This document shows positions 5,133 to 62,509 of a DNA stretch of 64,000 bases, in pieces. The notes beneath the pieces were generated by a model. It had not been told where the DNA came from. It saw nothing but the letters and a program-made list of their open reading frames with translations, and made no database searches. The DNA is taken from the sequence record PZ445436.1; one strand, given 5' to 3'. Position 1 is the first letter of the stretch. Each line of letters starts with the position of its first letter. Both the position numbers and the translations under genes were made by a program. The stretch is from a phage.

Positions 5133-5365
5133 AGTACGCCATACACCCTTTGTGCTTCAACTAATCCATCAAAATCCAATTTAAGATGCGATATTTGATC
5201 GCCATCGCCTGGATTCACAATTACTAATACTGAACGAGGAGTTTCGGTAATAACACGAACCGATGTTTCAGGAAATCGTTCAGAAACCTTATTTACTAAT
5301 TCCTGCGCAAATAGTTTAACTTTTTCTTGGAATTCTTTAACAGTAATTGGTTTTTCACTTAGCAT
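5129..5365 (-). CDS. hypothetical protein
   Basis: 78-aa ORF. Confidence 0.5.
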   Translation of the reverse strand: MLSEKPITVKEFQEKVKLFAQELVNKVSERFPETSVRVITETPRSVLVIVNPGDGDQISHLKLDFDGLVEAQRVYGVL

Positions 5366-5886
5366 GTTGATCCCAGCTCCTTACTTTCAACATTTTTAAC
5401 TAATTTGACAGAAACTAATTCAGCATCTTGAGTAATCATTACCGGACCTTCTTCATACTCTTCAAGATATTCTAGAGCTTTCTTTTTAGCTTCTTCCTTC
5501 GTATCAGTTTGAGCATAGATATAAAACATACAACCAGTAATACCTACTACTTTCCACTTAATTTCTTTATCAGCTTTAATTTCAAATTTACTGACAGAAT
5601 CATCTTTTTGAACTTCTTCGAAAAAAGAATATTCTAACATATAAGCAATTGAAAATAACGGGCTATCTTTATAGGATTCGCCCATTACATCAATAGCTTT
5701 ATACCAACAGTCATCAATTTCGCGTTTAATGCTAATAACATTCTTTGCAGGGTCAATTTTTACTTTAAATAAATTTTCCCCAATAAACTGGGCAATTCGT
5801 TTATTAGCCCCGCAAGTTTCATTAAAAATATCTTTATACCCAGTTTTAAAGCGATAAACCTTATCTTCTTCAAACCATTCGCTCAT
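5359..5886 (-). CDS. hypothetical protein
   Basis: 175-aa ORF; early-type promoter upstream. Confidence 0.55.
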   Translation of the reverse strand: MSEWFEEDKVYRFKTGYKDIFNETCGANKRIAQFIGENLFKVKIDPAKNVISIKREIDDCWYKAIDVMGESYKDSPLFSIAYMLEYSFFEEVQKDDSVSKFEIKADKEIKWKVVGITGCMFYIYAQTDTKEEAKKKALEYLEEYEEGPVMITQDAELVSVKLVKNVESKELGSTC

Positions 5887-6617: not shown

Positions 6618-7820
<1,203 letters not shown>

Positions 7821-7824
<4 letters not shown>

Positions 7825-9255: not shown

Positions 9256-10843
<1,588 letters not shown>

Positions 10844-10870
10844 AATAAAATGGGCCTTGCGGCCCACTCC

Positions 10871-12049
10871 TTAAAAATATTTTTTAAAACTCATCATAAC
10901 TTTATCATCAACATCATTATCAATCTGTGCAACAAGGTAAGATGACAGTTCTACTTCTTGTGGCGCGGATTGAACATTATCAGAATTAAGATATTCACGA
11001 ATCCAAGGATACGGATGTTTAACCGGAGCATCAGTAATTGGGCACGGAAGACCACACTGTTTCATACGAGATACAGTTAAGTAATCAATAAAGCTCCACA
11101 TGCTATTTGTATTTAATCCAGGAACATCGCCATCTTTAAATAAATGAACTGCCCAATCTTTTTCTTGGCGGTTAACTTCCATGAAAATATCAACTGCTTC
11201 TTGTTCACACTCTTTGGCAATTTTAACCCATTCATCACCATCCGTGCCAAGTTGAAGTTGACGAATAATATATTGTGTACCTTTAAGATGAAGCTGCTCA
11301 TCACGTGCAATGAACTTCATAATCTTGGCATTACCTTCCATGATTTCCATGTTCTTATGGAAGTTAAAGGTACATGCGAAAGATACATAAAAACGAATAG
11401 CTTCCAATGCGTTGATTACATGCAGACAAAGGTAAAGAGAACGCATTAGTTCGTATTTGCATTCTTCTACATGCATAAGGCTATTTGAATATGCGTCCAA
11501 ATCATATTCATTCTCTGAAAAACACCTAAAAATTTCTTTTGCGTTTTCCCATTCACGAGTTTTCTCAATAACATCATCATAATAACGACCAATAGATTCA
11601 GCACGTTTCATGATAGCTTTATCTAATACAATCTCATCAAATACCTTTGACGGGTCAGTATAAAGATTTCGCATAATATGAGTGTATGAACGGCTGTGAA
11701 TAGTTTCACTAAAAGTCCATGTAGCAACCCATGTATCAAGGCTTGGGTCTGAAATTAATGACATAAGTACAGCAGACGGTGCACGACCCTGAATGCTATC
11801 TAGAAGTGATTGATACTTCAGGTTATTAGTAAAAATATCTTGCTGATACTGAGGAAGCTTGTTAAATTGTGCAGCATCCATCATCAAGTTTACTTCTTCA
11901 GGACGCCAGAAAAATGACAATTGCTTTTCGGTTAAATCTTCAAAAACTTTATGGCGTTGAATATCATAACGCGCAATACCAAGACCTGAACCGAAGAACA
12001 TAGGTTCTTTTAAAACATCAACTGGATTTGTATTAAAAACTGTGCTCAT
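10871..12049 (-). CDS. nrdB: ribonucleotide reductase small subunit
   Basis: 392 aa continuous ORF with class Ia R2 features; no intron interruption. Confidence 0.95.
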   Translation of the reverse strand: MSTVFNTNPVDVLKEPMFFGSGLGIARYDIQRHKVFEDLTEKQLSFFWRPEEVNLMMDAAQFNKLPQYQQDIFTNNLKYQSLLDSIQGRAPSAVLMSLISDPSLDTWVATWTFSETIHSRSYTHIMRNLYTDPSKVFDEIVLDKAIMKRAESIGRYYDDVIEKTREWENAKEIFRCFSENEYDLDAYSNSLMHVEECKYELMRSLYLCLHVINALEAIRFYVSFACTFNFHKNMEIMEGNAKIMKFIARDEQLHLKGTQYIIRQLQLGTDGDEWVKIAKECEQEAVDIFMEVNRQEKDWAVHLFKDGDVPGLNTNSMWSFIDYLTVSRMKQCGLPCPITDAPVKHPYPWIREYLNSDNVQSAPQEVELSSYLVAQIDNDVDDKVMMSFKKYF

Positions 12050-12100
12050 AAATTTTCCGCTTAGTTAATAGATAGTGACTCGTCCATGAGTCAAATTATA

Positions 12101-14682: not shown

Positions 14683-14899
14683 ATTGTTTTTCCGTTAATA
14701 CAGTAATATCATAGTAACAATCGGAAGAAGTTTTAACTGTGGAAATTTTATTGTCAAAATACTCACGAGTCATTTTATGAGTATAATATTTTTTACCATA
14801 AATGGTAATAGGCTGTTCTGGTCCTGGAACTTCTAACTCGCTTGGATTAGGAAGTGTAAAAAGAACGACACCAGAAGTATCTTTAAATCGTAAAATCAT
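14636..14899 (-). CDS. hypothetical protein (nrdA.2-like by position)
   Basis: 87-aa ORF, ATGA overlap with td stop. Confidence 0.45.
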
Positions 14900-15756
14900 A
14901 TTGCCATTTTCCCTTTAATTGCTGGATGCGATTCATAATTTTCAAGGATAAAATCTTTCGGTTTCATGTATTCAGTTAACCAGTAAAGCTGTGTTTCGGT
15001 GTCACAATTTTCAAACTCTATAGGCCAATCAATTTTAAGTTCACACAGTTCTTTAGGCTCACGACGTAAAATTTCTTTACATTGCTCAGTATGATTCATA
15101 TAGATGTGAGTATTACCACCAGAAAATATCAAATCTCCTGGGATAAGATTACACATCTTAGCCACAATATGCGTCAAGGCAGCGTACGAGGCAATGTTGA
15201 ACGGCAAACCCAAGAAAACATCTACACTTCTTTGGTACCATTGTAAATCAAGATAACCATTACGCACATTAAACTGATAGAACATATGACAGGGCGGTAA
15301 TGCCATTTGATTGATTTCAGCTGGATTCCATGCTGAAACGATTTGACGTCGATCAGTTGGTAATTTTTTAATACGATCAATAGTTTCAACTAATTGATCC
15401 ACACCACCGAAATCACGCCATTGTTTACCGTATATAGGACCAAGTTCACCACTATGATATCCTAGGTCTTTAGCTTGGTTTTCATAATTGTCATCCCAGA
15501 TAGTTTTACCTTGAATAAGACTACCGTGAGTAAGAAGACGTAAATCATTAACATTGGTAGAACCGGAAATAAACCATAAAAGCTCAGCAATGCATGCATT
15601 CCAGGCGAGCTTCTTAGTTGTTACTGCAGGAAAACCTTTAGTTAAATCCCAGCGTAATTTAGTACCGAACAAAGCAATTGTTCCTGTGCCCGTTCGGTCA
15701 TCGGTTTCATAGCCATTTTCAAAAATGTCTTTAATTAAATCTTGGTATTGTTTCAT
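14896..15756 (-). CDS. td: thymidylate synthase
   Basis: 286 aa continuous ORF; ThyA motifs (active-site PCH); no intron. Confidence 0.95.
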
Positions 15757-15801: not shown

Positions 15802-16149
15802 TCAATACGGTTTAGCATCAAATTTTCTCTCAATTTCAGGTGTGAAATATAATTCTTTACCGCGTTTGGAAAAGCGACCAATAATATGATAATTATTCTC
15901 ATCAAACGTAATATTACCAATATCCATAGCTTTCAACCAAATATCGATATTTCTATCCAGCTTTATGTCAAAATTCCAATACGGAGAACTATTACCGAAA
16001 ATACTGCAAGCGGATTCAGTGAAACAACTGCTATAAATCTTGTCTTTAGGAACTACTAATTGATAGACACCTTTAATAAACTGAGGACCTTGCCATTTTG
16101 GCTGTTTCGTGTCTTTTTCTAATAGAATAGGGTAATAATTAAAATTCAT
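15802..16149 (-). CDS. hypothetical protein
   Basis: 115-aa ORF. Confidence 0.5.
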   Translation of the reverse strand: MNFNYYPILLEKDTKQPKWQGPQFIKGVYQLVVPKDKIYSSCFTESACSIFGNSSPYWNFDIKLDRNIDIWLKAMDIGNITFDENNYHIIGRFSKRGKELYFTPEIERKFDAKPY

Positions 16150-17241: not shown

Positions 17242-17267
17242 TTTATTCTCCTCAAGTTGATAAGGCT

Positions 17268-17297: not shown

Positions 17298-17299
17298 AA

Positions 17300-17560
17300 T
17301 TATTTTTGAATTTTATCGAGCCACTTACCAAGCTTAATCATTTCTTTAGTAGCCTTTTCCATACTTCTGAACTTGACCAATAGAGGATAGGTATCGACAC
17401 CCATAACTAAACTGGTTACAAGACTGTGTTCACCCACAAGCCATAACGAATACGTTTGAATATCGAGCCCGTAATTTCTGTCTTTATGGACCCGTACACC
17501 CATCACTTCAAATTTCTCACTAGCTTTTTCTACCGCATCCAGGAAATCATCTTTAGTCAT
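17300..17560 (-). CDS. hypothetical protein
   Basis: 86 aa from ATG 17558-17560 (avoids 41-nt overlap of longer track ORF). Confidence 0.45.
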   Translation of the reverse strand: MTKDDFLDAVEKASEKFEVMGVRVHKDRNYGLDIQTYSLWLVGEHSLVTSLVMGVDTYPLLVKFRSMEKATKEMIKLGKWLDKIQK

Positions 17561-17561
17561 A

Positions 17562-19268: not shown

Positions 19269-19335
19269 TTTTATTTCCTTTTTAATTTAATTAACAGTTG
19301 GTGCTATGACGATGTATGACCTCATAGCTGGTCAG
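19269..19335 (-). promoter_or_regulatory. gene 32 mRNA leader: H-type pseudoknot plus A/U-rich operator for translational autorepression
   Basis: minus-strand CUGACCAGCUAUGAGGUCAUACAUCGUCAUAGCAC (stems UGACC/GGUCA and GCUAUGA/UCAUAGC) then UUAAUUAAAUUAAAAAGGAAAUAAAAAUG. Confidence 0.7.
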
Positions 19336-19351
19336 TGAGATAATTATAATC

Positions 19352-19359
19352 TATTTATA
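19352..19359 (-). promoter_or_regulatory. late promoter motif TATAAATA upstream of gene 32
   Basis: exact match on minus strand; MotA-box-like TGCTTAT and a TATAAT also nearby. Confidence 0.5.
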
Positions 19360-19367
19360 ATAAGCAA

Positions 19368-27363: not shown

Positions 27364-30300
27364 ATGGCTACTTTAAAACAAATACAATTTAAAAGAAGCA
27401 AAACTGCAGGTCAACGTCCTGCTGCTTCAGTATTAGCCGAAGGTGAATTGGCTATAAACTTAAAAGATAGAACAATTTTTACTAAAGATGATTCAGGAAA
27501 TATCATCGATTTAAGCATTTCTGCTGGTGGTAATATCAGTGGTAATATTACTCAAACTGGAGATTATTTACAGAACGGTACATACAATCTCAATGGAAAT
27601 CAGTTTGTTTATGCAGGAAAATATATTGAATTTTTACCTAAAACAGCTGGTAATGGTGCGTGGGCAAATCAACACCTAAATAAAGCTCCTATCTTTACAG
27701 ATTTAAGTTCAACTACTTCTATTTCAGAATATCATCCACTCATTAAGCAACGCTATAAAGATGGAACTTTTTCAGCGGGTACATTGGTTGCTGAAGGCAG
27801 TTTTAAAATTCATTTTATGAATGAATCTGGTGATTCGAAATATTGGACGTTTCGCCGTGACGGTGGATTTACTGTTGACAATGGAGGTTTAGCAGTATCA
27901 GGTGGTAGTATAACCACAACCGGAAACATCGCCGCGATCGGAAATATTACTTCGCCCCAGATTAATACTAAAAATATTATTTTAGATACAAAGGCATTCG
28001 GACAGTATGATTCACAGTCATTAGTTCAATATGTTTATCCTGGAACAGGTGAAGAAAATGGTATAAACTATCTTCGTAAAGTTCGAGCTAAATCAGGCGG
28101 AACTATTTACCATGAAATCGCTTCAGCTCAAACTGGTAAGAATGATGAAATTTCTTGGTGGACCGGAAATACACTTACTACTAAATTAATGGGTCTTCGT
28201 AATGATGGCGCAATGGTATTACGTCGTTCACTTGCTATTGGCACAATTACCACTGATGAAAATACTAACAACTACGGTTCTCCTACTCCAATGGGAGAAA
28301 GATATATTGCTTTGGGCGATGCTGCAACCGGTTTAAAATACATTAAGCAGGGTGTTTATGATTTAGTAGGTAATTGGAATTCTGTTGCTTCTATTACTCC
28401 TGACAGTTTCCGTAGTACTCGTAAAGCGTTATTTGGTCGTTCAGAAGACCAAGGTGGAACATGGATTATGCCTGGAACGAACGCTGCCTTTTTATCAGTC
28501 CAAACACAGGCTGATGAAAACACTGCTGGAGACGGTCAAACCCATATTGGATATAACTCTGGCGGTAAAATGAACCACTATTTCCGTGGTAAAGGAAAAA
28601 CTAATATTAATACTCAAGAAGGCATGGAAGTTAACCCGGGTATTTTGAAATTGGTAACTGGCTCTAATAATGTAATGTTTTATGCTGATGGCGGTATTAC
28701 ATCTGTTAAGCAGCTTTCAATATATAACGGCATATATTTAGCAGCTAATAATTCTACTGCTGGGCTAACATTCGCTCCAACTACTACAATTGATGGCACT
28801 AAGCAAATTTTGTGGGAAGGCGGTACTCGTGCTGGTCAGAATAAAAGCTATGTAACTGTTAAAGCATGGGGTAATTCATTTAACGCATCTGGCGATCGTA
28901 ATCGTGAAACGGTTTTTGAAGTAGCTGATGGACAAGGATATTATTTTTATTCACAGCGTGTGGCTCCAAGTGGCTCTGAAACTACTGGGCCTGTTGTAAC
29001 CCAGTTCAATGGACAAGTTAATGCTAGAGGAAGTATTATTACTGACGGAAGTTTTAAAGTTAATGGATTAAGCACTTTAGTCGGTAATGTTACTATGTCT
29101 AATGGTTTGTTTGTCCAAGGTGGTTCTTCTATTACTGGACAGGTAAAAATTGGTGGAACGGCTGATGCATTAAGAATTTGGAATGCTGAATACGGTGCTA
29201 TTTTCCGCCGTTCAGAAGCGTCATTACATATTATCCCTACTCCTAAAGATGCCGGTGAAAGCGGTGGAATAAGTAATCTCCGCCCACTTAGTATTAGCCT
29301 TAATAATGGTATGGTGCAAATGCGTCATTCCGTTACATTAGGTGATGATGGTGCAGGCGGTAATATGGTGACGGTTGATAATGATTCTAAAGTTATGGTA
29401 ATGACGACTAATAGCCGTATTAGTCCTAACTTCCGTATGCAAATTGGACAGTCGTCTTATATTGATGTGGAATGTACTGATGCTGTGAGACCTACTGGAG
29501 CCGGTTCTTTTGCTTCACAGAATAACGAAAACGTTCGCGCTCCGTTCTATATGAATATTGATAGAACAGATACAAGCACTTATGTTCCTATTGTGAAACA
29601 AAGATACGTTCAAAATAATAGTTGCTATTCTATTGGTACTTTAATTAATGGTGGTAACTTTAGAGTTCATTATCATGAAGGCGGTGACGGCGTTTCTACT
29701 GGTGCTATTATAAAGGATCTTGGATGGGAATTTAATAAAAACGGTGATTTTTATTCTCCTGGTAAATTAGGCGCTGGAAATATTAGAATAGGTACTGATG
29801 GTAATATTACTGGCGGAACTGGTAACTTTGCTAACTTGAACACAACTATCGAATCATTAAAAACCGATATTGTTTCAAGTTATCCTATTGGAGCTCCTAT
29901 TCCATGGCCTACAGATACTCCTCCTAATGGTTACGCTATTATGGAAGGACAGACTTTTGATAAGTCTGCATACCCAAAATTGGCTATAGCTTACCCATCT
30001 GGAGTAATTCCTGATATGCGCGGGCAAACTATCAAAGGTAAACCAAGCGGTCGTGCTGTGTTAAGTGCAGAAGCTGATGGTGTTAAGGCTCATAACCATA
30101 GTGCTTCAGCATCTAATACTGATTTAGGTACTAAAACTACATCAAGCTTTGATTATGGCACTAAGACGACAAGTAGCTTTGACTATGGCACTAAGACTAG
30201 CAATACCACAGGTAACCACTCTCATACTGTAAGCGGTACTACGAGTTCTGCTGGTGCACACCAACATGCGCGCTCAGGTCCTCAGATACAAGCCGGCATA

Positions 30301-30636
30301 CCCAATAACATATTCTATGACGGATATAATAGTGTAGGTGCAAACGCCAACGCTAAATTCACTGGAACCGTGAACGGTGCTACTGCATGGTCGAATATAG
30401 CCAAAACTTCTTCAGACGGTGCTCATACTCATACTTGGTCTGGTACTACAAGCACTACAGGTAACCATGCTCACACAGTAGGTATTGGTGCTCATACCCA
30501 TACTGTAGGTATCGGTGCTCATACCCACACGGTAGCAATTGGCTCGCATGGTCATACTATCACTGTAAATAGTACAGGTAATACAGAAAACACGGTTAAA
30601 AACATTGCTTTTAACTATATCGTTCGTTTAGCATAA
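27364..30636 (+). CDS. 37: long tail fibre distal subunit gp37 (receptor-recognising tip)
   Basis: 1090 aa; C-terminal His-box repeats (GNHSHTV, GAHTHTV) as in T4-type gp37 tip. Confidence 0.95.
30127..30204 (+). repeat. tandem 30-nt repeat in gene 37 ([10 protein letters not shown] x2 plus partial)
   Basis: units 30127-30156 and 30157-30186 encode identical peptide with 7 synonymous differences. Confidence 0.7.
30481..30561 (+). repeat. His-box repeats in gene 37 tip region
   Basis: GIGAHTHTV x2 then AIGSHGHTI. Confidence 0.7.
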
Positions 30637-34602: not shown

Positions 34603-34752
34603 TTACTGCATGACTGTGATAACTGTCATGATAACACGTTGAATTCCGAACGCAAGAAGACCTCCTGCTACGGCTGGAACAACACCTAAACCCGCCAGTA
34701 AAATGCTACCAGATACTAATGCAGCGCTTGTAATACCAATGAATGGACTCAT
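34603..34752 (-). CDS. possible 49-aa hydrophobic peptide (52.1-like by position)
   Basis: ATGA overlap with gene 52 stop; MSPFIGITSAALVSGSILLAGLGVVPAVAGGLLAFGIQRVIMTVITVMQ; terminator right after stop. Confidence 0.4.
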   Translation of the reverse strand: MSPFIGITSAALVSGSILLAGLGVVPAVAGGLLAFGIQRVIMTVITVMQ

Positions 34753-36077
34753 TTGATTTCCTCTAAATCTTTGGTGTATTCGGTAACTACATCAGTAGTT
34801 TTCCAATATTCATTTTCTTCTTTTTTAGCTTTAGCTTCTTCAGCAAGTTTCTTTGCTTCGTCGGAAGTCATATGAAAAATATTCATTCCAACTAATTTAT
34901 CAACATAAGAAGAATACATCTCAATTTTAGAAAGTTCTTCGGTCAGTTCTTTACGAGTTTTACCCTGTACAACAATTTCACCTGAAATTACTTTCTTAAT
35001 GAAATGCGCCTTGGCAAAGGCTAAACGAAAAGCTGACTCAGTTTCTTTAATTTTGTTATCAATTCGTTTTTGGACATAAGTTTTACGAACTTCGACGAAG
35101 TCTTTGATTAAATCAACTACGTTATCGTAAACTTGCAGTTTTCCTTTCTCATTAATAACCGTAATATTCTGAGAACGACGCTCAATCAACCCAAAGTCTT
35201 TCATAATTTTTGCATGGCGTTCTTCTTCGTTATCGCTCAAAGAATATTCTTTACGGAATTTAACTTTGAAGCCAAAGCCATGCTCACCACAAGCATCATC
35301 CCATGTAATGAAGCCTTTATCTTCAAGTGGGTCTAAGATTTTACTCACATAAGTTTCACGATCATACTTATACGGAATCTCAGTGATATTCATTTGAGTT
35401 CGTGAAGTAAACTTGTACGTTCCACGAATTTCATATTGACCGTCAATCTCAACGACTTCACCACGAAATTCTGGGAATTCTACCTTCGGTTTAGTTACTT
35501 TCTTTCCTTGAATAGCTTGCAGTACAGCTTTCTTGACAGAAGAAACACTATGAGGAAGAATGTAAGTTGCATAACCAGTTGCAATACCGGAAACGCCATT
35601 AAGAAGAACAGTAGGAATAATAGGCAAATAGAAAGCAGGCGGAATGTGTTCTTTATCTTGATGTACCGGAGCATATTCAGTATCTTTATACACGTTATAG
35701 AAATTTTTACTTATACGAGCAAAAATATAACGACTCGCCGCTGCCTTTTGAACGGTACGAGAACCAAAGTTTCCTTGACCATCTAACAGAGGAAAGTTAT
35801 TATTCCAAGTGTTAGCCATCAAAGCTCCCGCATCTTGCGCAGAGTTTTCGCCATGGTGATATCCAAGGTCCGCTACACCACCTGCGATAGAAGCGAGCTT
35901 ATGAAACTTATCTTTATTTCCTCGTGCCAAATCAAGAGCTCGAGCAATAACAAATCGTTGAACTGGCTTAAATCCATCAATCATATTTGGGATAGCACGA
36001 TTTTCAACCGTGTACATAGCATAAGCCAATGCTTCATTATCAATGATACTTTTTAAATCGCGATTATTCAGTTGCAT
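34749..36077 (-). CDS. 52: DNA topoisomerase II medium subunit gp52
   Basis: 442 aa; GyrA/ParC-like N-terminal breakage-reunion domain. Confidence 0.95.
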   Translation of the reverse strand: MQLNNRDLKSIIDNEALAYAMYTVENRAIPNMIDGFKPVQRFVIARALDLARGNKDKFHKLASIAGGVADLGYHHGENSAQDAGALMANTWNNNFPLLDGQGNFGSRTVQKAAASRYIFARISKNFYNVYKDTEYAPVHQDKEHIPPAFYLPIIPTVLLNGVSGIATGYATYILPHSVSSVKKAVLQAIQGKKVTKPKVEFPEFRGEVVEIDGQYEIRGTYKFTSRTQMNITEIPYKYDRETYVSKILDPLEDKGFITWDDACGEHGFGFKVKFRKEYSLSDNEEERHAKIMKDFGLIERRSQNITVINEKGKLQVYDNVVDLIKDFVEVRKTYVQKRIDNKIKETESAFRLAFAKAHFIKKVISGEIVVQGKTRKELTEELSKIEMYSSYVDKLVGMNIFHMTSDEAKKLAEEAKAKKEENEYWKTTDVVTEYTKDLEEIK

Positions 36078-37873: not shown

Positions 37874-38133
37874 AGTTCAATCTCAATGATTTCCAGGTGT
37901 TTTTGTTTTATTGCCTTTTTAACACAATCATGGACTAAATATGACCATGAATCATTATATTCTCCATTAACTAATCGTTGGAGATCTTCACGTGATGATA
38001 AGTAAGGTTGATCTGATTCCCATTTTGATAAAAATACTGCAGTAAAAATATCTCCTTCACCTGTAGTTGAAGTCGTAAATGCAATAAATTCACCGGTAAT
38101 TTTATGTTTAGCGTAATAAAATTTAAATTTCAT
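37870..38133 (-). CDS. hypothetical protein
   Basis: 87 aa from ATG 38131-38133 with GGAGGAG SD; early promoter lies inside the longer track ORF. Confidence 0.5.
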   Translation of the reverse strand: MKFKFYYAKHKITGEFIAFTTSTTGEGDIFTAVFLSKWESDQPYLSSREDLQRLVNGEYNDSWSYLVHDCVKKAIKQKHLEIIEIEL

Positions 38134-38160
38134 TTTTACTCCTCCGTAGCTGATAGTTGT

Positions 38161-38207: not shown

Positions 38208-38765
38208 TTAAATGGAAAGATACCATCCGTTGTAGTTGCTTTTTCTTACAACCTTACGAAGGTCTTCTCTGTCACCGATGAACTTCGGAGTGTACTGGAT
38301 GACACCTGGATGAATTTCTTTAGTGTTGAATATAATTATACAGTCAGCGACTTGATGATTTAGAATGGGCCCTAGATTTATTCCAGAACCGTATGGATAC
38401 TCTCCGCTGCATCCTGTTGTTACAGAAATCCAACGTGAGTCAGTTTGGTGTGTCTTAACTTCTACACGAAGCCCGCAGTATCTTGGATGCGCCAATACAT
38501 CCCATGCGTATGTATACGGGTCATTAACATCCTCTTGGCCTTTATTAACATACCCGCTTAACCAATCTGCTACAAAAAATTCTGCGTACACAGCGATACG
38601 ACATCTTTCAATAACTTCTGCTTTATCCTGGTTCGGGTTTTGTTTTAAAGAGTATCTTGCTGTATCAGCAATTTTGACCTTCATTTCACTAGTCAAGTCA
38701 CTGTTCGATAGGGTAAATGTCGGAATCTGAAATAGTCTCTGTAAACCCGGATTCGTTTTCTGCAT
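38208..38765 (-). CDS. denB: endonuclease IV
   Basis: 185 aa, T4 DenB length and position upstream of ndd cluster; AAGGAAAG SD. Confidence 0.75.
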   Translation of the reverse strand: MQKTNPGLQRLFQIPTFTLSNSDLTSEMKVKIADTARYSLKQNPNQDKAEVIERCRIAVYAEFFVADWLSGYVNKGQEDVNDPYTYAWDVLAHPRYCGLRVEVKTHQTDSRWISVTTGCSGEYPYGSGINLGPILNHQVADCIIIFNTKEIHPGVIQYTPKFIGDREDLRKVVRKSNYNGWYLSI

Positions 38766-39027
38766 TTAGACTTTCCTTTTTACCACTGAGATAGGCGTTA
38801 TATACTTTAAGAGTGCCATAATAAATTCGGTCATTTTCATCTAAAGACTCGCGGTCAAGTTCATCGAGCTCCTTTTTATCCATGACTATAACATCATTAC
38901 AGTAAAGAAACCCAAGTTTTTCGTGACCAAACTCAAATTTATTACAGTACACAATATTAGCGTGATGATTTCCGTGCAGTTTAATCTCTTTTATGTCGGA
39001 ATCACCGATATTCATACAATAAATCAT
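38698..39027 (-). CDS. hypothetical protein
   Basis: 109-aa ORF, overlaps denB start by 68 nt. Confidence 0.45.
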   Translation of the reverse strand: MIYCMNIGDSDIKEIKLHGNHHANIVYCNKFEFGHEKLGFLYCNDVIVMDKKELDELDRESLDENDRIYYGTLKVYNAYLSGKKESLNAENESGFTETISDSDIYPIEQ

Positions 39028-40239: not shown

Positions 40240-42417
40240 TTAGGCCGCAAGGGCCTTCATAGTTTTAGCGATTTGGGAAACTTCATCATCACTTAAAGAG
40301 TTGCGATAACCGATGAAGTCGGAAACAATACGGAATTTCTTGGTAAACTCAGCAACCATTTTATCACTGTTTTTTGAAGCATTATTTGATAGTACATCAA
40401 AAAGATTAGTTACTGTCCAGATGTCATGACCGATGGTATCTTTTCCACCATTAAAATATACGCCGCGCAATGAACTAACTATATTAGCGAGTCGTGTATA
40501 TTCTTCAGAAACTTCATCTGTACTGAAGTACTTCATCATAAAATCTAGTTCAGGATACTTAATAATTTTATCAATATATCGTTGAGCTGAACTTGAATAA
40601 CCTACATACTTATCATAATCTACATCATCAAAAGCATCTACATATAAATCACGCAAAGCTTCAAAAATACATTGGCACTGACCGAGTTCTTTTACCTTTT
40701 TCTGTAAAAGCGGACGAATAACATAAAATTCATTAATGCCAATAAGATTAGCCATACGAATCAAAATATTCATAGATGGATGACAAAGCGATGTAGTACC
40801 ATCCATAGAGAAAATATCAGAACGATGCATATACGCTACATAACCAGTAATTTCATCTGCTTCTGACGTGAGTGTAAATAGTTCCTCTTTTTCCCATCGC
40901 CCATCTTTAATTTCAAATTTAAATGCTGTAGCAGCTTTAGGACGAGGAGCTTTACTTTTAACTACCTTTGGAATATAGCTTTTAACTAAAGCTTCAATTT
41001 CTGACAAATAATGAATGTTAACTTCATCACTTTCAAACATTGCCATAATATCAGGTAGTAAATCAATCTGCGATTCTACTTCCGGATTAATAAACAGAAG
41101 ACGCTCATTGTGATGAATATTTAAGGTGTTATTAAATTCACTATCATCTAATGCACGTGCTAATCCACGGACAATATTAACACGATTTTTAATATTATCA
41201 ATAACAATATTAATTTTTGTCGTATTAATACCAAACAGACGATAACTTGATGCAACGGCTGAAGTTTCATGACTTTGCTTAATACGCTTCAGTCGAGGGT
41301 CAAGATTTACTTCATACACCACGCCTGCATTACATAACTTACTGTCAGGTTCAAACATGCTCTGCATTTTCTTATATGACAGATTTTTAGTCGTGAATTT
41401 GACTGAATTACTAATCATATAATCTCGAGCAGAATACCCCATCTTCATCAATTCACGATATGTATGACGAGGAGATGTAGATTCTTTAAATCGTTTTACA
41501 TCTTCATTAAATGCTTTCTCACTGAGTTCTTTAACTCGTTCAATAATATTTTTACGAGTACGATCATCTAGTGAAAGAGCCTCACGAGATGGAGCAATAT
41601 CAAGTGAACCCATTGGAAACTTAATGTAATTCACTTCATTGCGGATGCTTAGCCAGTTACGGTCTCTAATAACACCATCGATAGGATAAACAATACCGCC
41701 ATAGATAGCATATAATCCACCACGATCTGGCCAGTATCTTTCTGGATTTACGCCATAATAATCATCAAAATCCGGAAAATAATCAATTTCGCGGTCAAGA
41801 CCATTAATGATAGCCAAATCTTTGAACGGTCGCATGATATAAGAAACTTCATAAGCAAAGTTTCTAAAGTCTTTTTCTTCAACTGGAACTACGATTTCAA
41901 TACCAGTTTTATCATCTGGACCCATTTCTTTTACGAATGTAGGTTTAATCTGTGGGCCATCACCATCCATGTAAGCTACATAACCACGAATTTCACCTTT
42001 ATGATACGAAGTAATACTAAACGTATCAGTATAACTAAACGGAGATTTAGAACCTAAACCAAATCCGCCAATGAAATCGTTAGATTCAGCCTTAGATGAA
42101 CTGAAGTATGAATTATACAGTCCAGGAGAATTATCATCACCCTGAATATCAAAATCACTCATACCCGGACCAAAATCTCGGCAAACAAATCGCGGGTCTA
42201 ATCGTCCTGGAACTTGAATGATAAATTTTTCAGGATTTCCATTGAGAGCATGGGCATCAATCATGTTAGTAATCAATTCACGAACTACTGCGCGAATCTT
42301 GTTTGTATACAAATCAGATGACAGAATTTTAAATACTTTAGGAGACGCTGTGATGCTAAATGCTTTTGATTTAGAACCATTACCAAGAATTGTTTCTTTT
42401 TCAGTGGTGATAATCAT
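40240..42417 (-). CDS. rIIA: rIIA rapid-lysis protein
   Basis: 725 aa, T4 rIIA length; N-terminal GHKL-type ATPase-like region. Confidence 0.95.
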
Positions 42418-42427
42418 AATTTCCTCA

Positions 42428-42631
42428 TTAATTCATATTACGCTTAATAACTTCAGCAACTTCTAGTAGTTCATCTTTAGTTGCGGTGTCGGATTGAATT
42501 TTATCTCTAATATCTTTAAAGCGGTTTTTAAATTCTTCGGCTTCTCCCATATCGAAAAAGCGTTGAATGATTCTATATTCTCGATGAACTGCTTTATCAA
42601 AAAGCTCTAAATTTACTTTATATGATTTCAT
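42428..42631 (-). CDS. hypothetical protein (rIIA.1-like by position)
   Basis: 67-aa ORF; early promoter upstream. Confidence 0.5.
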
Positions 42632-42656
42632 TTCAATATCCTCATTTGCCCAATTA

Positions 42657-42686
42657 ATTATACCACATCCTTGTGGTAAAGTAAAC
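42657..42686 (-). promoter_or_regulatory. T4 early-type promoter (rIIA.1/rIIA transcription unit)
   Basis: GTTTAC, 18 nt, TGGTATAAT. Confidence 0.65.
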
Positions 42687-44506
42687 TACTGGCTCATCCA
42701 TTCTTTACGAAGGTCAGCATTATCTCCCATGAGCATTTCAAAAAGCTCTTTCCAGTTCTCAGGAAGTTTAACAACATCATATACTGGGTTTTGAATCATC
42801 TCACGATATTCAGATTTTTCCAAAGAGCCAAGTCCCTTAATATAACGGATGCTATGTTTAGGTAGAGCATCTTTGGCACTCTCATATTCAGCGACTGTAT
42901 AAAACCATTCTTGTTTTTTACCGACCTGAGCGATGATTACAGGAGTTTTGACAAAGCGAATTCGTCCTTGCTCAAACAATTCTGGCCAATTACTAAAAAA
43001 CCCGAGCAGAGAAGGATAAATGCTTCCTAGACCATCATGGTCAGCATCAGTCATAATAGCAATATTATGATAATTCAAGTTTTCAGCTTTTTCACCAAGA
43101 ACTAATCCAGTGATTGCGCAAATATCAAATAGTTCTTTATTTTTAAGCATATCAGCATATGACATACCCCAACTGTTGAGAACTTTACCACGCAATGGAT
43201 AACCACCATGAAGTTCTTTATCACGAACATCAATAAGATATCCGATAGCAGAATCACCCTCAGTCAAGAAAAGAGTAGTATCAGCATCTTTACCGCAAAG
43301 ATTCGCTTTGATATGTTTATGAACCTTAGCTTTAGAAGCCTTTTTAGCTGCTTTAGTTTCTGCTGCTTTTTCTGCCGCCAATTTACGAGCCAAAGCAGCT
43401 TCAATAATCGGCATTAGAATTGCTTCATTATTTAGAATAGCACGTGAAATCTTTTTAGCATCAAGTTGAATATGACTACGGATTTCACCAAATGGAGAAG
43501 TCAAACGCTCTTTAGTTTGAGAATCAAATCGCATGTTTTTCATATCACGGACAAACATAACGATAGTCAAACATTCTTTGACACGTGCTTTAGTTACATC
43601 AATTTTGAACTTACGTTTGATTTGTGGAATAAGGTCTTCACAAATATCATCCATAACACAGTCAATGTGATGGCCACCATTCTTAGTATGAATGTTATTG
43701 ACGTATGTTAATTGACGAAAACCATCTGGTGAACGACCAACCGCAATAGAACAATTTTCTTGTTCTTGAACGATAGCATGTTCATCATACTGTCGTGCGT
43801 ATTTCTTAAAATTACCCTGAACCTTTTTACCATTAAAGGTAAATTGAATATCAGGATAAACAACAGCAAGTGTCTGGAGACGATCCAGTGTAATGTCAAG
43901 ATAAACTTGGGACAGCTCATTAGTTTCAAATGACATAAAATCTGGAATGAAAGTAACACGAGTTCCTTTCCATTTTCCAGGAATAGTTTCCCAGGATTTA
44001 TTTTCCATGCCATTTGAACAACGAACTACAATATTATTTTGACCATCGCCAGTTTCACCGACAAACATCACAGAAAAAATGTTAGTTAAACTAGAACCAA
44101 CACCATTCATACCACCGGTGACACGTTCTTTATCATCACCAAAGTTACCACCCGCTTTTGGAATAGTCCAAGCAGCAACTGGACCAGGAATTTCTTCACC
44201 GGTAGGTGTTTTAACCATCGCTTGTGGAATACCACGACCGTTATCTTCAACTGTTACTTGATTGTTTTTGATAGTAACATTAATTTTATTTGCGAATTTA
44301 AACTTAGTACGAATACCTTCATCTACTGAGTTATCGATAATTTCATCAATAAGCTTAACAAGACCAGGTACATACTGAACACTTTCCCATTTACCAAACA
44401 GAAAGCGCTCATGCATTTCATTAGCAGAAGAGCCAATATACATGCCGCTACGCTTTTTGATATGTTCAATATCGCTCAGAATTTTAATTTCATTCTTAAT
44501 CATCAC
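42686..44506 (-). CDS. 39: DNA topoisomerase II large (ATPase, GyrB-like) subunit gp39, unsplit
   Basis: 606 aa continuous ORF with GHKL ATPase and Toprim regions; corresponds to T4 gp39 plus gp60 as one protein. Confidence 0.9.
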   Translation of the reverse strand: MMIKNEIKILSDIEHIKKRSGMYIGSSANEMHERFLFGKWESVQYVPGLVKLIDEIIDNSVDEGIRTKFKFANKINVTIKNNQVTVEDNGRGIPQAMVKTPTGEEIPGPVAAWTIPKAGGNFGDDKERVTGGMNGVGSSLTNIFSVMFVGETGDGQNNIVVRCSNGMENKSWETIPGKWKGTRVTFIPDFMSFETNELSQVYLDITLDRLQTLAVVYPDIQFTFNGKKVQGNFKKYARQYDEHAIVQEQENCSIAVGRSPDGFRQLTYVNNIHTKNGGHHIDCVMDDICEDLIPQIKRKFKIDVTKARVKECLTIVMFVRDMKNMRFDSQTKERLTSPFGEIRSHIQLDAKKISRAILNNEAILMPIIEAALARKLAAEKAAETKAAKKASKAKVHKHIKANLCGKDADTTLFLTEGDSAIGYLIDVRDKELHGGYPLRGKVLNSWGMSYADMLKNKELFDICAITGLVLGEKAENLNYHNIAIMTDADHDGLGSIYPSLLGFFSNWPELFEQGRIRFVKTPVIIAQVGKKQEWFYTVAEYESAKDALPKHSIRYIKGLGSLEKSEYREMIQNPVYDVVKLPENWKELFEMLMGDNADLRKEWMSQ

Positions 44507-44556
44507 TTATCCTCGTTTGGTTTCGGGAATATTATACTCCGGTAATCATAAAGCTA

Positions 44557-44574
44557 AAGGCCCGAAGGCCTTTT
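44557..44574 (-). other. hairpin upstream of gene 39
   Basis: AAAGGCC-UUCG-GGCCUUU; U-rich on both strands. Confidence 0.5.
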
Positions 44575-44842
44575 ATTTAAAACGAATAGTTGAATCCTTA
44601 AAGAACAGCCCAGAACATACTGTTCCTTCTACTTTCTGCCCAGTAGGTCCAACAGCACGAAATCCAGTATGTTGGAAATCATTTTCAGAGCAACCGAACC
44701 AGTTATATCCAGTGATTTCAATATTCGTAAAACCACTTGATGATAAAATTTTAGTTGCATTATCAGCATCAGTGCATCCTACTAAAGATACTGCTAATAC
44801 TAATGCTGCGATAGAACGATTAACATATTTCATAATTTTCAC
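44573..44842 (-). CDS. putative lipoprotein
   Basis: 89 aa; signal peptide with lipobox LVGC. Confidence 0.5.
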   Translation of the reverse strand: MKIMKYVNRSIAALVLAVSLVGCTDADNATKILSSSGFTNIEITGYNWFGCSENDFQHTGFRAVGPTGQKVEGTVCSGLFFKDSTIRFK

Positions 44843-45210
44843 TTAAATTTAATGGCTTGAAGGAGACTAATAATTCTTAAACGGCTTCTTTCATCTTTAA
44901 CTGTAAAAGAAAGAGGGTCGCCAGATTTCATAGTAATAGTGCATTCAAAATCAAAATCTTCTGTGACTTCTTCGAAGAAGTCAAATTCTTCATCATAAAT
45001 TAGAACACTACTTTGCAGACTGTGGAGAGTTTTTCCAGCATTTCCAGATGCTGTACCAATCATTGTAACATTATGACCTTTCATATCTTCAACGATAAAT
45101 TCGTTTGTCAATATTACAGCATTAATAGAACTATTCCTATTACTAACAGAAAGTAGAAATTTCTGTTCTTCACCTTCACGAATACGATATTTCTTACCAA
45201 TTTTAAACAT
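44839..45210 (-). CDS. hypothetical protein
   Basis: 123-aa ORF. Confidence 0.5.
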   Translation of the reverse strand: MFKIGKKYRIREGEEQKFLLSVSNRNSSINAVILTNEFIVEDMKGHNVTMIGTASGNAGKTLHSLQSSVLIYDEEFDFFEEVTEDFDFECTITMKSGDPLSFTVKDERSRLRIISLLQAIKFK

Positions 45211-45212
45211 AA

Positions 45213-45389
45213 TTACCCTTTAAGTAAGTCGTAAAAACCACCATTCACATGCTTAGGAGCAGAAGGCCGACGAGTAGACAGACGATGACATTTAGGGCAA
45301 ACATCATTTTCTCGTTCAGAAATCTTTTTAATTTTTTCATATTCATGCCCGCAATCTTCGGATTGGCATTTATAATCATACATTGGCAT
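45213..45389 (-). CDS. possible 58-aa zinc-ribbon protein (FmdB-like CxxC...CxxC)
   Basis: MPMYDYKCQSEDCGHEYEKIKKISERENDVCPKCHRLS...; below track cutoff. Confidence 0.4.
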   Translation of the reverse strand: MPMYDYKCQSEDCGHEYEKIKKISERENDVCPKCHRLSTRRPSAPKHVNGGFYDLLKG

Positions 45390-45391
45390 AA

Positions 45392-45817
45392 TTATTCCTT
45401 AAAATGTGCTTTCAACATCTGATACAAGGACCATGCATGTTCATTATTTTCAATAGTAACTTTCATGACCGGGAATTCTGTGAAATCTTCTATTTGTTCT
45501 TGCTCTTTCTCTTCCTGCTCTTGCTCTTCGGCTGCCTGGTATGGATTTTCCACTTCATCAAAGAACACAGCTTCGCTCGTTGAAAGCCAGATAAAATCTT
45601 CATCCAAAATATCTTTACCAGAAGATAACGCCAATTTTCCACTAGATGTCACAAGTTTAGTAGGACGACCAAGATAGTCAATATCTGTAACTCTAAAAGG
45701 TTCCATACCAAGACGACGTGCATAAATTCCGTTTTCAGTATGGTCCTTGATAAAATCTTCTTGAGCTTGTTTATTTTTAAATTGATACCATTTATTAACT
45801 TCAAATTTAATAGCCAT
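45392..45817 (-). CDS. hypothetical acidic protein (goF-like by size and position)
   Basis: 141-aa ORF. Confidence 0.4.
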
Positions 45818-46045: not shown

Positions 46046-46327
46046 TTAATTGAACAGTGGAGCGATGCGTTTCAGAAGAGTAGCAGCACCTTTAGCGAAT
46101 TTTACATCATGAAAAACAGTTTCTTCTTCCGTTACAACACGAGCTTTAATGTTTTCACAATCCCAATTTTTGCGAACAATCTTCAAAAGCTGCAGTAAAT
46201 CTTTACATTCAGCAATATCGATAACACATCCACGAGAATCTTCCATTATCGCACGATAACCGTAAGCCATACCATAATCATTGAAAGATTGCTCGATGAT
46301 AATTAAATTTTCCATTTTATTCTCCAA
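46046..46327 (-). CDS. hypothetical protein
   Basis: 93-aa ORF. Confidence 0.5.
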   Translation of the reverse strand: MENKMENLIIIEQSFNDYGMAYGYRAIMEDSRGCVIDIAECKDLLQLLKIVRKNWDCENIKARVVTEEETVFHDVKFAKGAATLLKRIAPLFN

Positions 46328-49180: not shown

Positions 49181-49412
49181 ATTTAATTAGTAATTTACAG
49201 ACACTTTCATCTAGTGTAATTACCGTATCTGTATTACTGTGATATGATTGTTTTTCAATTCGTTTAATTGCTAATATAGTATCACTTATAAGATAAAGCT
49301 TATGAAGGAGCTCAGCTCCTGTTACCATAACATCGAGATTATCTTGCTTATTAGTATGCTTCCTTATACCATCTATTAGACGATTTAAATATTTTGAATT
49401 GATGTTAATCAT
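49152..49412 (-). CDS. hypothetical small protein (possible member 3)
   Basis: 86 aa, weaker similarity. Confidence 0.45.
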   Translation of the reverse strand: MININSKYLNRLIDGIRKHTNKQDNLDVMVTGAELLHKLYLISDTILAIKRIEKQSYHSNTDTVITLDESVCKLLIKFEEAIRGNN

Positions 49413-49418
49413 ATAGCC

Positions 49419-50738
49419 TCACACATAAAATACATCATAACGACCACGAGTTACACCAACATAAAGAAGTTGTTGGGCCAATTCAGCATCTGCATAATGA
49501 ATACAAGGCGTATAAATGAAAGCACGGTCTACAGACATACCCTGAGCTTTATGGAATGTTGATGCAGGAAGTGCTTTCACTTTACTAAACTGTGATTTAG
49601 CATCCCAAAAATCACTCCATGGAGCTTTTCCGCCTTTGTTCCAATTTTTATAAGTTTCTGCCGTTTTACCTAAAAATAGGTTAAACTTATACAATTCTTC
49701 ATCAGATGAAATTATTTTAATCTTTTCACGATAATATTCATCATCGCCGTAAGTTTCTACTGTTAAATCCCAATGACGAATTAAGTATTCTCCAGGAACA
49801 CCACGGGCTTTAACAAACGTTGATGTATACTCTGCTTCTATAATACGAACTAATTGTCCGTTATTAAAAATAATTTCTGACACAGGCTTTCCATCAATTT
49901 TATATGTTTTAATTAATGGTTCCTGCATTACAATAATTTCACCTACAATAAAATCTTTATCAGTTTCAAAAATCTTTTTACGAATAATGCTATTTAACTT
50001 GTCAACAGATTTATTCGTAAATGCCATTACGCGATTTTCAAACAAATCATCTAGAGATTTGACGATTGAAAAATAATTTACCATAAAATCGCGTAAAGCG
50101 GTATCACCTGTAAATCCACGTACTCCATGCCCGTCAACAACTTTATCATAAATCCACTTACCGTTGCGAACATCAGTAGCTACATCAATAATAGGAGCAT
50201 TACTGCGTTTAACTTCAGTAAGTTCACACTGATAAAAATCTTTGTGTGTAAAGAATGGACTGATATAAGCAGTATTTTCTCCTGGATCAACAGGTCTAAT
50301 TTGCTTATTATCCCCTATTCCAATTATAGTACACCAAGGTGGAATAGTTGAAAGCAGAATTTTAAATAGCTTTCTATCATACATTGACACTTCGTCGCAG
50401 ATTAATACCCTGCATTTAGCTAAATCTGGTACTTCCTTCTGTTCAAAAAGAACGTTTTCTTCATACGTAACTGGGTTAATTTTAAGAATACTGTGAATAG
50501 TACTCGCTTCTTTCCCCGACAGTTTTGAAAGAATCTTTTTAGCTGCATGTGTAGGAGCTGCCAAAATGATACCAGTTTCGCCTGTTGATATTAAAGCTTC
50601 AATGATGAACTTAGTAAGAGTAGTCTTACCGGTACCAGCAGGTCCATTAATAGTTACATGATGTTTCTTTTCTTTAATAGCCTTCATAACAATGTTAAAG
50701 GCATTTTTCTGGCCTTCGGTCAAATCATCAAATGTCAT
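49419..50738 (-). CDS. dda: Dda DNA helicase (SF1B)
   Basis: 439 aa; Walker A GPAGTGKT; T4 Dda length. Confidence 0.9.
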   Translation of the reverse strand: MTFDDLTEGQKNAFNIVMKAIKEKKHHVTINGPAGTGKTTLTKFIIEALISTGETGIILAAPTHAAKKILSKLSGKEASTIHSILKINPVTYEENVLFEQKEVPDLAKCRVLICDEVSMYDRKLFKILLSTIPPWCTIIGIGDNKQIRPVDPGENTAYISPFFTHKDFYQCELTEVKRSNAPIIDVATDVRNGKWIYDKVVDGHGVRGFTGDTALRDFMVNYFSIVKSLDDLFENRVMAFTNKSVDKLNSIIRKKIFETDKDFIVGEIIVMQEPLIKTYKIDGKPVSEIIFNNGQLVRIIEAEYTSTFVKARGVPGEYLIRHWDLTVETYGDDEYYREKIKIISSDEELYKFNLFLGKTAETYKNWNKGGKAPWSDFWDAKSQFSKVKALPASTFHKAQGMSVDRAFIYTPCIHYADAELAQQLLYVGVTRGRYDVFYV

Positions 50739-55612: not shown

Positions 55613-55822
55613 TTAAATTACATGATTATTTATAATAAATTCTCGCGGAACGTTAAAATACCCGATTTTAGTTAATATAACAACATCACCGTTAATAATT
55701 ACCGGAGAATAATCTTCTGGAGCATTAAATTTCCAATGGGCTCTAATATTATATCCATCAGAACCAAATGCTCGAGTAGCCGGTCTCCCGGCTTTTTGCC
55801 ACGCGTAGAAATCAAATTTCAT
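55613..55822 (-). CDS. hypothetical protein
   Basis: 69-aa ORF. Confidence 0.45.
   Translation of the reverse strand: MKFDFYAWQKAGRPATRAFGSDGYNIRAHWKFNAPEDYSPVIINGDVVILTKIGYFNVPREFIINNHVI
55627..55634 (-). promoter_or_regulatory. late promoter TATAAATA for soc
   Basis: exact match about 30 nt before soc ATG; AAGGAG SD. Confidence 0.7.
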
Positions 55823-56013
55823 TTTGAATGATCTATAATTAATTTTAAATCTTCTTCACTGACAAAAATTTCGTCAGGACCTTCTATAACTTCAACCATA
55901 CGAAGTTGATTAGTTAAGAGCTCACATACGAGCTCCTTGTTATAATCTTTAAATAGCTGGTCAATACGTTTCTTATGGGCTTTCTTAAGCTGACGCTTAT
56001 TTAAACGAGCCAT
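55819..56013 (-). CDS. hypothetical basic protein
   Basis: 64-aa ORF. Confidence 0.45.
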   Translation of the reverse strand: MARLNKRQLKKAHKKRIDQLFKDYNKELVCELLTNQLRMVEVIEGPDEIFVSEEDLKLIIDHSK

Positions 56014-56531
56014 TAATAACCTCGGTCTTGACGAGCGAAGTTTTCAGCATTTTTCAGGTAATAAAGTTTAAAGATTTCTTCAGCTGACATTCCAAGAGCA
56101 ATAAATTTATTCATGAAAAAGTGAAATTGATCAATCAGTTCAAATTTAATTTCAAGTTGATCTTCAGGAGATAAGTCTTGAATTTTCTTGGATTGCATTT
56201 CAGAATAACGTTTCTTCCAAGGTTTCCATACAGCAGAAGCTTCTTTTTCACCATTACTCATACCACCAAGAGAAGTATATAGCTCGCGAGTTTCGTCTGC
56301 AATATAATCGTCTTGGTTTCGCAACCAAGCAAGAACTTCTCCTGCAGTTTCAAGTGAATCAGGATGACGATTTGTTTCTGGTTTATCATTAGCCAAACGA
56401 ATCTGTAAATGCCGCTGCATATCAAGCATAACCTGCAGTGGGTCAATATTGTGCATAATATTCTCAGCATATGCACGATTTGCTTTATCAACACCTTCGA
56501 TCAAATGAGCACATTCATTAAAGTGAGCCAT
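56013..56531 (-). CDS. 56: dCTPase/dUTPase (gene 56)
   Basis: 172 aa from ATG 56529-56531 (MAHFNECAHLIEG...); MotA-box middle promoter upstream. Confidence 0.85.
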   Translation of the reverse strand: MAHFNECAHLIEGVDKANRAYAENIMHNIDPLQVMLDMQRHLQIRLANDKPETNRHPDSLETAGEVLAWLRNQDDYIADETRELYTSLGGMSNGEKEASAVWKPWKKRYSEMQSKKIQDLSPEDQLEIKFELIDQFHFFMNKFIALGMSAEEIFKLYYLKNAENFARQDRGY

Positions 56532-56565: not shown

Positions 56566-56589
56566 ATTATACAATAAATATATAAAGCA
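56566..56589 (-). promoter_or_regulatory. MotA-dependent middle promoter for gene 56
   Basis: TTGCTTTA MotA box, 11-nt spacer, TATAAT. Confidence 0.6.
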
Positions 56590-56602
56590 ATAAGGAGGAC
56601 AT

Positions 56603-56803
56603 ATGGTACAAAAATTAATGGCACTTGTTAATGCCATCAAAGGTAATAAAAAGCGTATAGCTTTTACTATTTCTGCTATGGTAGGAATTTTACTCTGGAA
56701 CTTTATTTTATCACCTGTTGCAATTGCACATGGTATTAATATTCCAGTAGTTACTCTTGATACATTCGTAGATTTAGCATTTGCTTTAGTTGGGTTAATT
56801 TAA
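56603..56803 (+). CDS. possible 66-aa two-helix membrane protein on opposite strand
   Basis: TAAGGAGG 4 nt before ATG 56603; hydrophobic segments; only plus-strand ORF in the minus-strand block that does not overlap a minus gene body. Confidence 0.35.
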   Translation: MVQKLMALVNAIKGNKKRIAFTISAMVGILLWNFILSPVAIAHGINIPVVTLDTFVDLAFALVGLI

Positions 56804-62432: not shown

Positions 62433-62509
62433 TCATTTTTTCCATAGGCATCATTATATTTTCCTCACTGGTTAAAGATAGAGTAATTATAACACAATAA
62501 ATTTAGGCA

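Follow-up and report, generated by a model that had tools for sequence, protein, structure and literature searches.

Unsplit gene 39 and uninterrupted td and nrdB genes in the early region of a Tequatrovirus genome

Gene 39, td and nrdB

The window analyzed in this work is a 64,000-nucleotide (nt) stretch of phage DNA from sequence record PZ445436.1. It comes from a Tequatrovirus (T4-like, Straboviridae) and covers the early/middle genes between 30.2 and 42, rIIA/rIIB included. We analyzed three genes that are interrupted in phage T4, namely gene 39, which codes for the large subunit of the type IIA topoisomerase, td and nrdB, together with the sites at which T4 carries homing endonuclease genes in this region. 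Genes were assigned from the annotation of MZ501066 (phage FriedrichMiescher of the BASEL collection) and of T4 (NC_000866). The principal features were as follows:

42686..44503, minus strand: gene 39, unsplit type IIA topoisomerase large (GyrB-like) subunit, 605 amino acids
43021..43086, minus strand: empty MobA site, 64 nt of parental gene 39, where T4 has a 1.1-kb MobA/60.1/bypass cassette
34749..36077, minus strand: gene 52, GyrA-like topoisomerase partner (Pfam DNA_topoisoIV, 1e-76, and orthologue annotation)
14896..15756, minus strand: td, thymidylate synthase, 286 amino acids, uninterrupted, with the empty intron site at ~15204-15207
10871..12049, minus strand: nrdB, ribonucleotide reductase small subunit, 392 amino acids, uninterrupted, with the empty intron site at ~11373-11376

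The original prediction had described the topoisomerase large subunit as one open reading frame (ORF) of 606 amino acids. The gene is indeed unsplit, its product matching residues 1-473 of T4 gp39 and residues 27-160 of T4 gp60 in a single chain, but the length had to be corrected. The ORF at 42686-44506 (minus strand) has 606 codons when counted from a GTG at 44506, which lies in frame one codon upstream of an ATG at 44503. This ATG is the orthologous start, as in T4 and in the annotation of the relatives MZ501066 and MZ501106, and it gives a protein of 605 residues. A frame of 606 codons cannot have arisen by chance in DNA of ~35% GC. Identity to T4 extended over 465 of the 473 gp39 positions (98%) and 128 of the 134 gp60 positions (96%). 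The junction between the gp39-like and gp60-like parts reads ...GEKAENLNYHNIAIMTDADHDG..., with no extra residues, and in the protein alignment the window gp39 had none of the insert-derived features of T4, i.e., the C-terminal extension (CTE) of gp39, the N-terminal extension (NTE) of gp60 and the 50-nt gap. In the blastn comparison, T4 positions 2793-3911 (bypass, 60.1 and mobA) were without a counterpart, and the 64 nt at window 43021-43086 were found instead. Thus, the window has no ~1.1-kb insert, no homolog of MobA or gp60.1 and neither extension, and the gene is not occupied by a MobA/gene 60 bypass cassette.

The single gp39 chain was matched in Pfam by HATPase_c (residues 47-149), DNA_gyraseB (residues 250-384) and TOPRIM_C (residues 519-604). 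Residues 1-605 aligned end to end with PDB chain 8ylu_C (1388 bits), which we took to be the T6 enzyme from its chain length and from PMC11461880; against 8yo3_C, an artificial fusion of T4 gp39 and gp60, the window protein aligned as two pieces. Topoisomerase II (Topo II) of T2 and T6 has two subunits, and T4 is the sole three-subunit case (PMC11461880, Nat Commun 2024). Topoisomerase activity of the window protein is inferred from its near-identity to the characterized T6 and T4 enzymes. The 605-residue chain comprises a whole GyrB-like subunit (ATPase, transducer and TOPRIM) and, together with the product of gene 52, located 6.6 kb from gene 39, would form a two-subunit type IIA topoisomerase as solved for T6. 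Translational bypass and subunit reassembly would then be unneeded.

That td and nrdB are continuous and free of group I introns, as had been claimed, was confirmed both by alignment to T4 and by covariance search with T4 as a positive control. The two products gave full-length matches to Pfam Thymidylat_synt (td) and Ribonuc_red_sm (nrdB). By blastn and global alignment, the T4 td intron (~1017 nt) was missing precisely at its insertion point (window 15204/15207), and so was the T4 nrdB intron (598 nt; window 11373/11376). Compared with the ligated exons of T4, the td junction keeps the TTCTTGGGT core and the CNNNG motif, and the nrdB junction has five mismatches, all of them in the 45 nt upstream, the 45 nt downstream being identical. 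A search with the Rfam model Intron_gpI (RF00028) in E-value mode gave no match in the td-nrdB interval (E <= 1) or in the whole window (E <= 0.1), and the same mode detected the T4 introns with 40.3 bits (td) and 35.7 bits (nrdB). At the gathering cut-off of this model (50 bits) the ORF-containing introns of T4 itself are missed (td, L004 17596-17826; nrdB, L004 12509-12749; L004 is our handle for the T4 record). Therefore, default Rfam scans are unusable for calling T-even genes intron-free, and the negative result obtained for the window at the gathering threshold was discarded. Both genes would be translated directly, and splicing would be unneeded.

Homing endonuclease sites and the frequency of each state

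In the region equivalent to the window T4 has seven homing endonuclease genes (mobA, segF, segA, I-TevIII, mobE, I-TevI and segG). In a blastn map of the window against T4, all seven sites were empty or otherwise occupied, the T4 inserts being missing at their insertion points with clean junctions. Besides gene 39 and the two introns, the relevant features were:

12050..12100, no strand assigned: spacer of 51 nt between nrdA and nrdB, where T4 has nrdB.1 and mobE and FriedrichMiescher has a mobE-like HNH gene
19269..19367, no strand assigned: spacer between genes 32 and 59, where T4 has segG
55613..56013, minus strand: two small ORFs of 69 and 64 amino acids (DUF7422) at the T4 segF position, also present in T2 and T6
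62433..62509, no strand assigned: spacer between uvsX and the beta-alpha-glucosyltransferase gene, where T4 has segA
10433..10867, minus strand: denA (endonuclease II), the sole GIY-YIG domain in the window (PF01541, 27.1 bits versus a cut-off of 22.6)

We searched the six-frame translation of the window by tblastn, phmmer and hmmsearch (two family hidden Markov models, HMMs, with filters off), using as queries all 15 Seg, Mob and I-Tev proteins of T4 as well as gp60.1, nrdB.1 and the mobE-like gene of FriedrichMiescher. No relative of Seg, Mob or I-Tev proteins was found in any frame of the window at better than E = 0.04. The same queries detected seg-like, mob-like and I-TevI-like genes in five IMG/VR T4-like loci (L016, L045, L074, L091 and L096). 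The Mob N-terminus repeatedly gave weak tblastn matches at 7012-7179 (plus strand, E >= 0.8), which were judged to be chance as they lie antisense inside pseT, a gene 96% identical to that of T4.

Pfam was run on the 10 ORFs absent from T4 and on 87 further minus-strand ORFs (97 small ORFs in total), as well as on six large genes. The sole nuclease-type match among the small ORFs was GIY-YIG (PF01541) in DenA, and no GIY-YIG homing endonuclease was found. No HNH domain was detected among the 97 small ORFs or with the Mob and I-TevIII queries, and no LAGLIDADG domain was detected by Pfam in the small ORFs and the six large genes. The denA gene has ~97% nucleotide identity to denA of T4; it is the orthologue of T4 endonuclease II, a conserved nuclease of host-DNA degradation that is neither mobile nor homing, and it is a false positive in naive GIY-YIG scans. 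Thus, the claim that 64 kb contain no seg or mob homing endonuclease was upheld, and profile searches of the window with Intron_gpI, Pfam and the family HMMs revealed neither intron remnants nor homing endonuclease genes. With seven endonuclease genes and both introns absent, the mobile-element load is low relative to T4, as predicted. All T4 endonuclease and intron sites of the region (in gene 39, nrdB and td, and between nrdA and nrdB, 32 and 59, 56 and soc, and uvsX and the glucosyltransferase gene) are empty, and in a co-infection with T4 this phage would be expected to be the recipient, not the donor, in homing and marker exclusion.

The loci used as positive controls include several arrangements of their own. 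In L096, a mob-like HNH gene of opposite orientation (4581-5048) separates pseT from cd.4, a free-standing I-TevI-like gene is found just downstream of td (L016 4361-5089), and a seg-like gene is present at L091 55-693.

To place these states among related phages, we counted their occurrence in a collection of phage records. A 200-nt probe across the uninterrupted gene 39 junction matched 455 records (at least 80% coverage), and the T4 MobA/bypass cassette was found in 43. Of ~500-640 related records, 197 had the td intron and 118 had that of nrdB (at least 80% coverage). Among 80 diverse IMG/VR loci encoding relatives of td, the gene was uninterrupted in 77. Two of the three interrupted genes have introns with I-TevI-like ORFs at codon 183/184 (L045 4181-4906 and L074 4186-4920), and the third (L041) is broken there too but lacks an I-TevI-like ORF. 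Intron-free td and nrdB are therefore the majority state, and, judging from this distribution, probably also the older one. Because of these counts, the emphasis of the original prediction has to be inverted: the window represents the common state, and it is T4 that is the outlier. T4 has been called "an oddity" in the literature, and it was treated as an anomaly by Edgell et al., with PMC2988022 among the supporting literature.

We also considered whether the td intron and a 115-amino-acid ORF found between frd and td in the window (see below) form mutually exclusive, linked haplotypes, an idea based on the fact that the numbers of records containing them (197 and 362) add up to nearly the number of related records. 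It was rejected, as 79 records matched a chimeric probe for intron and ORF together, and all four combinations of the two exist.

Origin of the empty sites and three ORFs labeled as endonucleases

We conclude with high confidence that the window is a typical Tequatrovirus region of the T2/T6 type and not of the T4 type, in which all T4 endonuclease and intron sites are empty, and that this is the majority condition of T-even phages. The original prediction went further and suggested that the segment may resemble an insertion-free ancestral state. For gene 39 this reading is plausible, and on sequence grounds we find it reasonable, because there is no CTE or NTE footprint and because the uninserted form of the gene was named "parental" by Manning & Atkins (bioRxiv 10.1101/2022.08.31.505936). 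According to the same authors, the MobA element is a 1.1-kb insertion that removes 55-75 nt of the parental gene across clades, 64 nt in the case of phage HY01; they also described lineages that lack the endonuclease yet retain CTE/NTE relics, and a "hit and run" loss of MobA in Aeromonas phages. For the segment as a whole, however, an ancestral state is not demonstrable, because an occupied site that is replaced by an empty allele looks the same as one never invaded. Nor is the segment simply T4 minus its insertions, since at least 10 of its small ORFs or segments have no counterpart in T4.

Several points weigh against the main conclusion of a typical T2/T6-type region with empty sites. A single sequence cannot distinguish sites that are ancestrally empty from those that were secondarily restored. 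The Pfam scan of large T4-orthologous genes covered six of them, and an endonuclease class without known motifs, such as Hef, would escape every profile used. In addition, three ORFs of the window bear the label "putative homing endonuclease" in BASEL GenBank records, and the AlphaFold models obtained for two of them are too poor to exclude a novel nuclease fold (predicted local distance difference test score, pLDDT, of 39.7 for the 175-residue protein, modeled with no alignment, and of 59.5 for the 115-residue protein). The three ORFs, all absent from T4 and all given this label in BASEL records only, are:

5359..5886, minus strand: ORF of 175 amino acids between cd.2 and cd.3
7522..7824, minus strand: ORF of 100 amino acids between pseT.1 and pseT
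15802..16149, minus strand: ORF of 115 amino acids between frd and td

One alternative is that the empty sites are secondary, i.e., that gene 39, td and/or nrdB were once invaded and were then restored by recombination with an uninvaded relative or by precise loss. We regard this as unlikely, although several observations are of the kind it predicts. T-even genomes are mosaics, and this one is no exception. Positions 42000-45500 were 100% identical to FriedrichMiescher and to a second BASEL phage, TadeuszReichstein (MZ501106). Hundreds of phages of Escherichia, Shigella and Yersinia matched this stretch at 95-99%. For positions 1-24000 the top database record had only 97% identity, and no single record matched the whole window. 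The genome is thus pieced together from known Tequatrovirus segments, which is common among these phages.

Exon 1 of td (15207-15759; 85% nucleotide identity to T4) and exon 1 of nrdB (11376-12049; 82-86%) are far more diverged than the surrounding backbone (96-97%). NrdB differs from the T4 protein by a 5-residue and a 1-residue indel, and in the stretch immediately before the intron insertion point (residues ~171-205) almost no residue is shared and indels are present. The existence of all four combinations of td intron and 115-residue ORF, including the 79 records with both, is a further observation on this side. In one phage that has both, Lutter (L107), td exon 1 is like that of the window up to ~50 nt from the intron; the final ~50 nt resemble T4 instead and look like a short co-conversion tract adjoining the intron. 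For gene 39, restoration would have a precedent in the hit-and-run loss of MobA in Aeromonas phages. Yet the window gene has no CTE/NTE relic, unlike the documented cases, and its unsplit form is both the majority form and the one that the literature calls parental, whereas for td the uninterrupted gene predominates across distant T4-like genera. The reading of the empty sites as the common, and in gene 39 plausibly ancestral, condition is preferred.

A second alternative is that mobile elements are present in the segment after all, the three labeled ORFs being free-standing homing endonucleases of an unrecognized class, so that the load would be different rather than low. The ORFs show clean presence/absence relative to T4 and lie between conserved genes of nucleotide metabolism, a typical endonuclease habitat, and Hef provides a precedent for an endonuclease without a known motif (PMC2988022). 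The label itself was found in MZ501066 and in proteins of phages AndreasVesalius and WilhelmHis; the exact proteins of the ORFs at 5359-5886 and 7522-7824 are those of AndreasVesalius. All other records inspected for the three ORFs describe them as hypothetical. In the passages of the BASEL paper that deal with homing endonucleases, annotation is described as comparative and no criterion for the label is given (PMC8594841).

None of the three ORFs had a Pfam nuclease domain, an informative PHROG family or a relative among solved structures; the PHROGs are of unknown function. The 100-residue protein matched designed helical repeat proteins (E = 0.003), the model of the 115-residue protein had no meaningful PDB neighbor, and the family of the 175-residue protein was too shallow in a word-indexed protein search. 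Their distribution, which carries the most weight here, also differs from that of homing genes. The segments coding for the 175- and 115-residue proteins were present in 300 and 362 phage records, respectively, which is the majority state, and the family of the 115-residue ORF is located directly downstream of frd in many T4-like phages. In Mosigvirus-like genomes and in T4-like genomes farther away, the corresponding positions (next to frd on its downstream side, between cd.3 and cd.2, and immediately ahead of pseT) are taken by homologs with only 26-57% identity. The divergence of these homologs is about that of several small neighboring genes, such as cd.1, cd.3 and frd. The sporadic distribution of near-identical copies that is typical of homing was not seen for any of the three.

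Because of these diverged syntenic homologs in distant T4-like phages, the labeled ORFs appear to be old, vertically inherited accessory genes that were probably lost by T4, with no sign of recent homing. We therefore consider it very unlikely that they are endonucleases making the load different rather than low. That a new, Hef-like class of selfish or nuclease genes without known motifs is represented among them seems exceedingly improbable; if this were true, the "empty" T-even genomes would be less empty than they appear. Since the label has no support from domain, fold or distribution, its propagation for these small ORFs is inadvisable.

A further observation concerns the 175-residue ORF. 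Both this protein and a 123-residue ORF at 44839-45210 (between 39.1 and 39.2) matched phrog_622 and phrog_3710. The 123-residue ORF had two further matches, to a PHROG family of the goF type and, at a weak level, to Pfam FRD2. Small early proteins of this kind may thus form a paralogous family with dispersed members. The relationship between the two ORFs was not detected by phmmer within the window and T4.

The remaining alternative, that td is kept intron-free by an endonuclease-resistant allele, concerns the region ~15210-15250, where the Gln-Arg-Ser codons of the I-TevI cleavage site, CAA CGC TCA in T4, read CAA AGA AGT in the window. The changes are synonymous. I-TevI can cope with many substitutions; what matters to it is the G of the essential Arg codon. 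Although there are five synonymous differences in 16 nt around the cleavage site, and although the intron-containing Lutter allele is T4-like in exactly the recoded stretch of an otherwise window-like exon 1, resistance is highly improbable, as the CNNNG motif (CAAAG) and its spacing are retained and ordinary co-conversion yields the T4-like stretch of Lutter.

Genome context and comparison with known systems

The genes of the window are, in order, 30.2, rIII, 31, cd, pseT, alc, rnlA, denA, nrdB, nrdA, td, frd, 32 and 59, followed by 33, dsbA, rnh, 34-38, t, asiA, motA, 52, ndd, denB, rIIB, rIIA and 39, then by goF, motB, dexA, dda, srd, modA/B, mrh, soc, 56, 61, sp, dmd and 41, and finally by 40, uvsX, the beta-alpha-glucosyltransferase gene and 42. 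Additional small ORFs or segments absent from T4 were found at the positions listed here; DUF7418 aside, the others fall into PHROG families of unknown function.

16752-16993, 17253-17568, 37895-38143, ~38779-38975, 46107-46306 and 49187-49419: extra small ORFs or segments
38698-39027: DUF7418 protein, among the extra ORFs

Other differences from T4 affect DNA modification. The dam gene of T4 (Dam DNA adenine methyltransferase, T4 16846-17625) had no tblastn match in the window; its place corresponds to 56571-56592, between genes 56 and 61, where a small plus-strand ORF is located (56603-56803). The beta-alpha-glucosyltransferase gene (62510-63358) replaces segA and beta-gt of T4, a homolog of beta-gt being absent, and the pattern of hydroxymethylcytosine glucosylation is predicted to be of the T2/T6 type. 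The dCTPase gp56 (56016-56531) has 70% protein identity to T4, and its neighbors have 96-99%. Gene 56 carries the SegF target and adjoins the two small ORFs found in place of segF, and the divergence of gp56 may be a polymorphism associated with the SegF site. Gene 37 (27513-30493, distal tail fiber) is 75-77% identical to T4 or, in the receptor-binding part, unalignable. Identity to T4 rises to ~95-97% in genes 36 and 38 on either side, and gp38 belongs to the T4 type.

Unsplit gene 39, intron-free td and nrdB and empty endonuclease sites are already known in T-even phages, and nothing in the present observations is new in this respect. They are of limited importance, adding one more Tequatrovirus that confirms the textbook view, in which T4 is exceptional in having 15 homing endonucleases, three introns and a topoisomerase gene that is split.

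With regard to known systems, the td and nrdB genes of the window resemble the intron-less T-even alleles that serve as homing sites for I-TevI and MobE/I-TevIII; they are likewise continuous and match the ligated exons of T4. They differ from td and nrdB of T4 in having exon 1 haplotypes that are 14-18% diverged, indels in NrdB and a recoded I-TevI cleavage region. The split gene 39/60 of T4 (Bonocora et al. 2011; Manning & Atkins 2022) has the same neighbors as gene 39 of the window (rIIA.1 and 39.1) and an orthologous coding sequence on either side of the insertion point (98% and 96% amino acid identity). However, T4 has mobA, 60.1, CTE, NTE, homR and the bypass, whereas the window has none of these and keeps the 64-nt parental segment. 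A close counterpart is Topo II of the T2/T6 type (gp39 and gp52; 8ylu and related structures), which has the same single large subunit of 605 residues, the same order of domains and the same gp52 partner. The window gp39 appears to differ from it by only a few amino acid substitutions, and a functional difference would not be expected.

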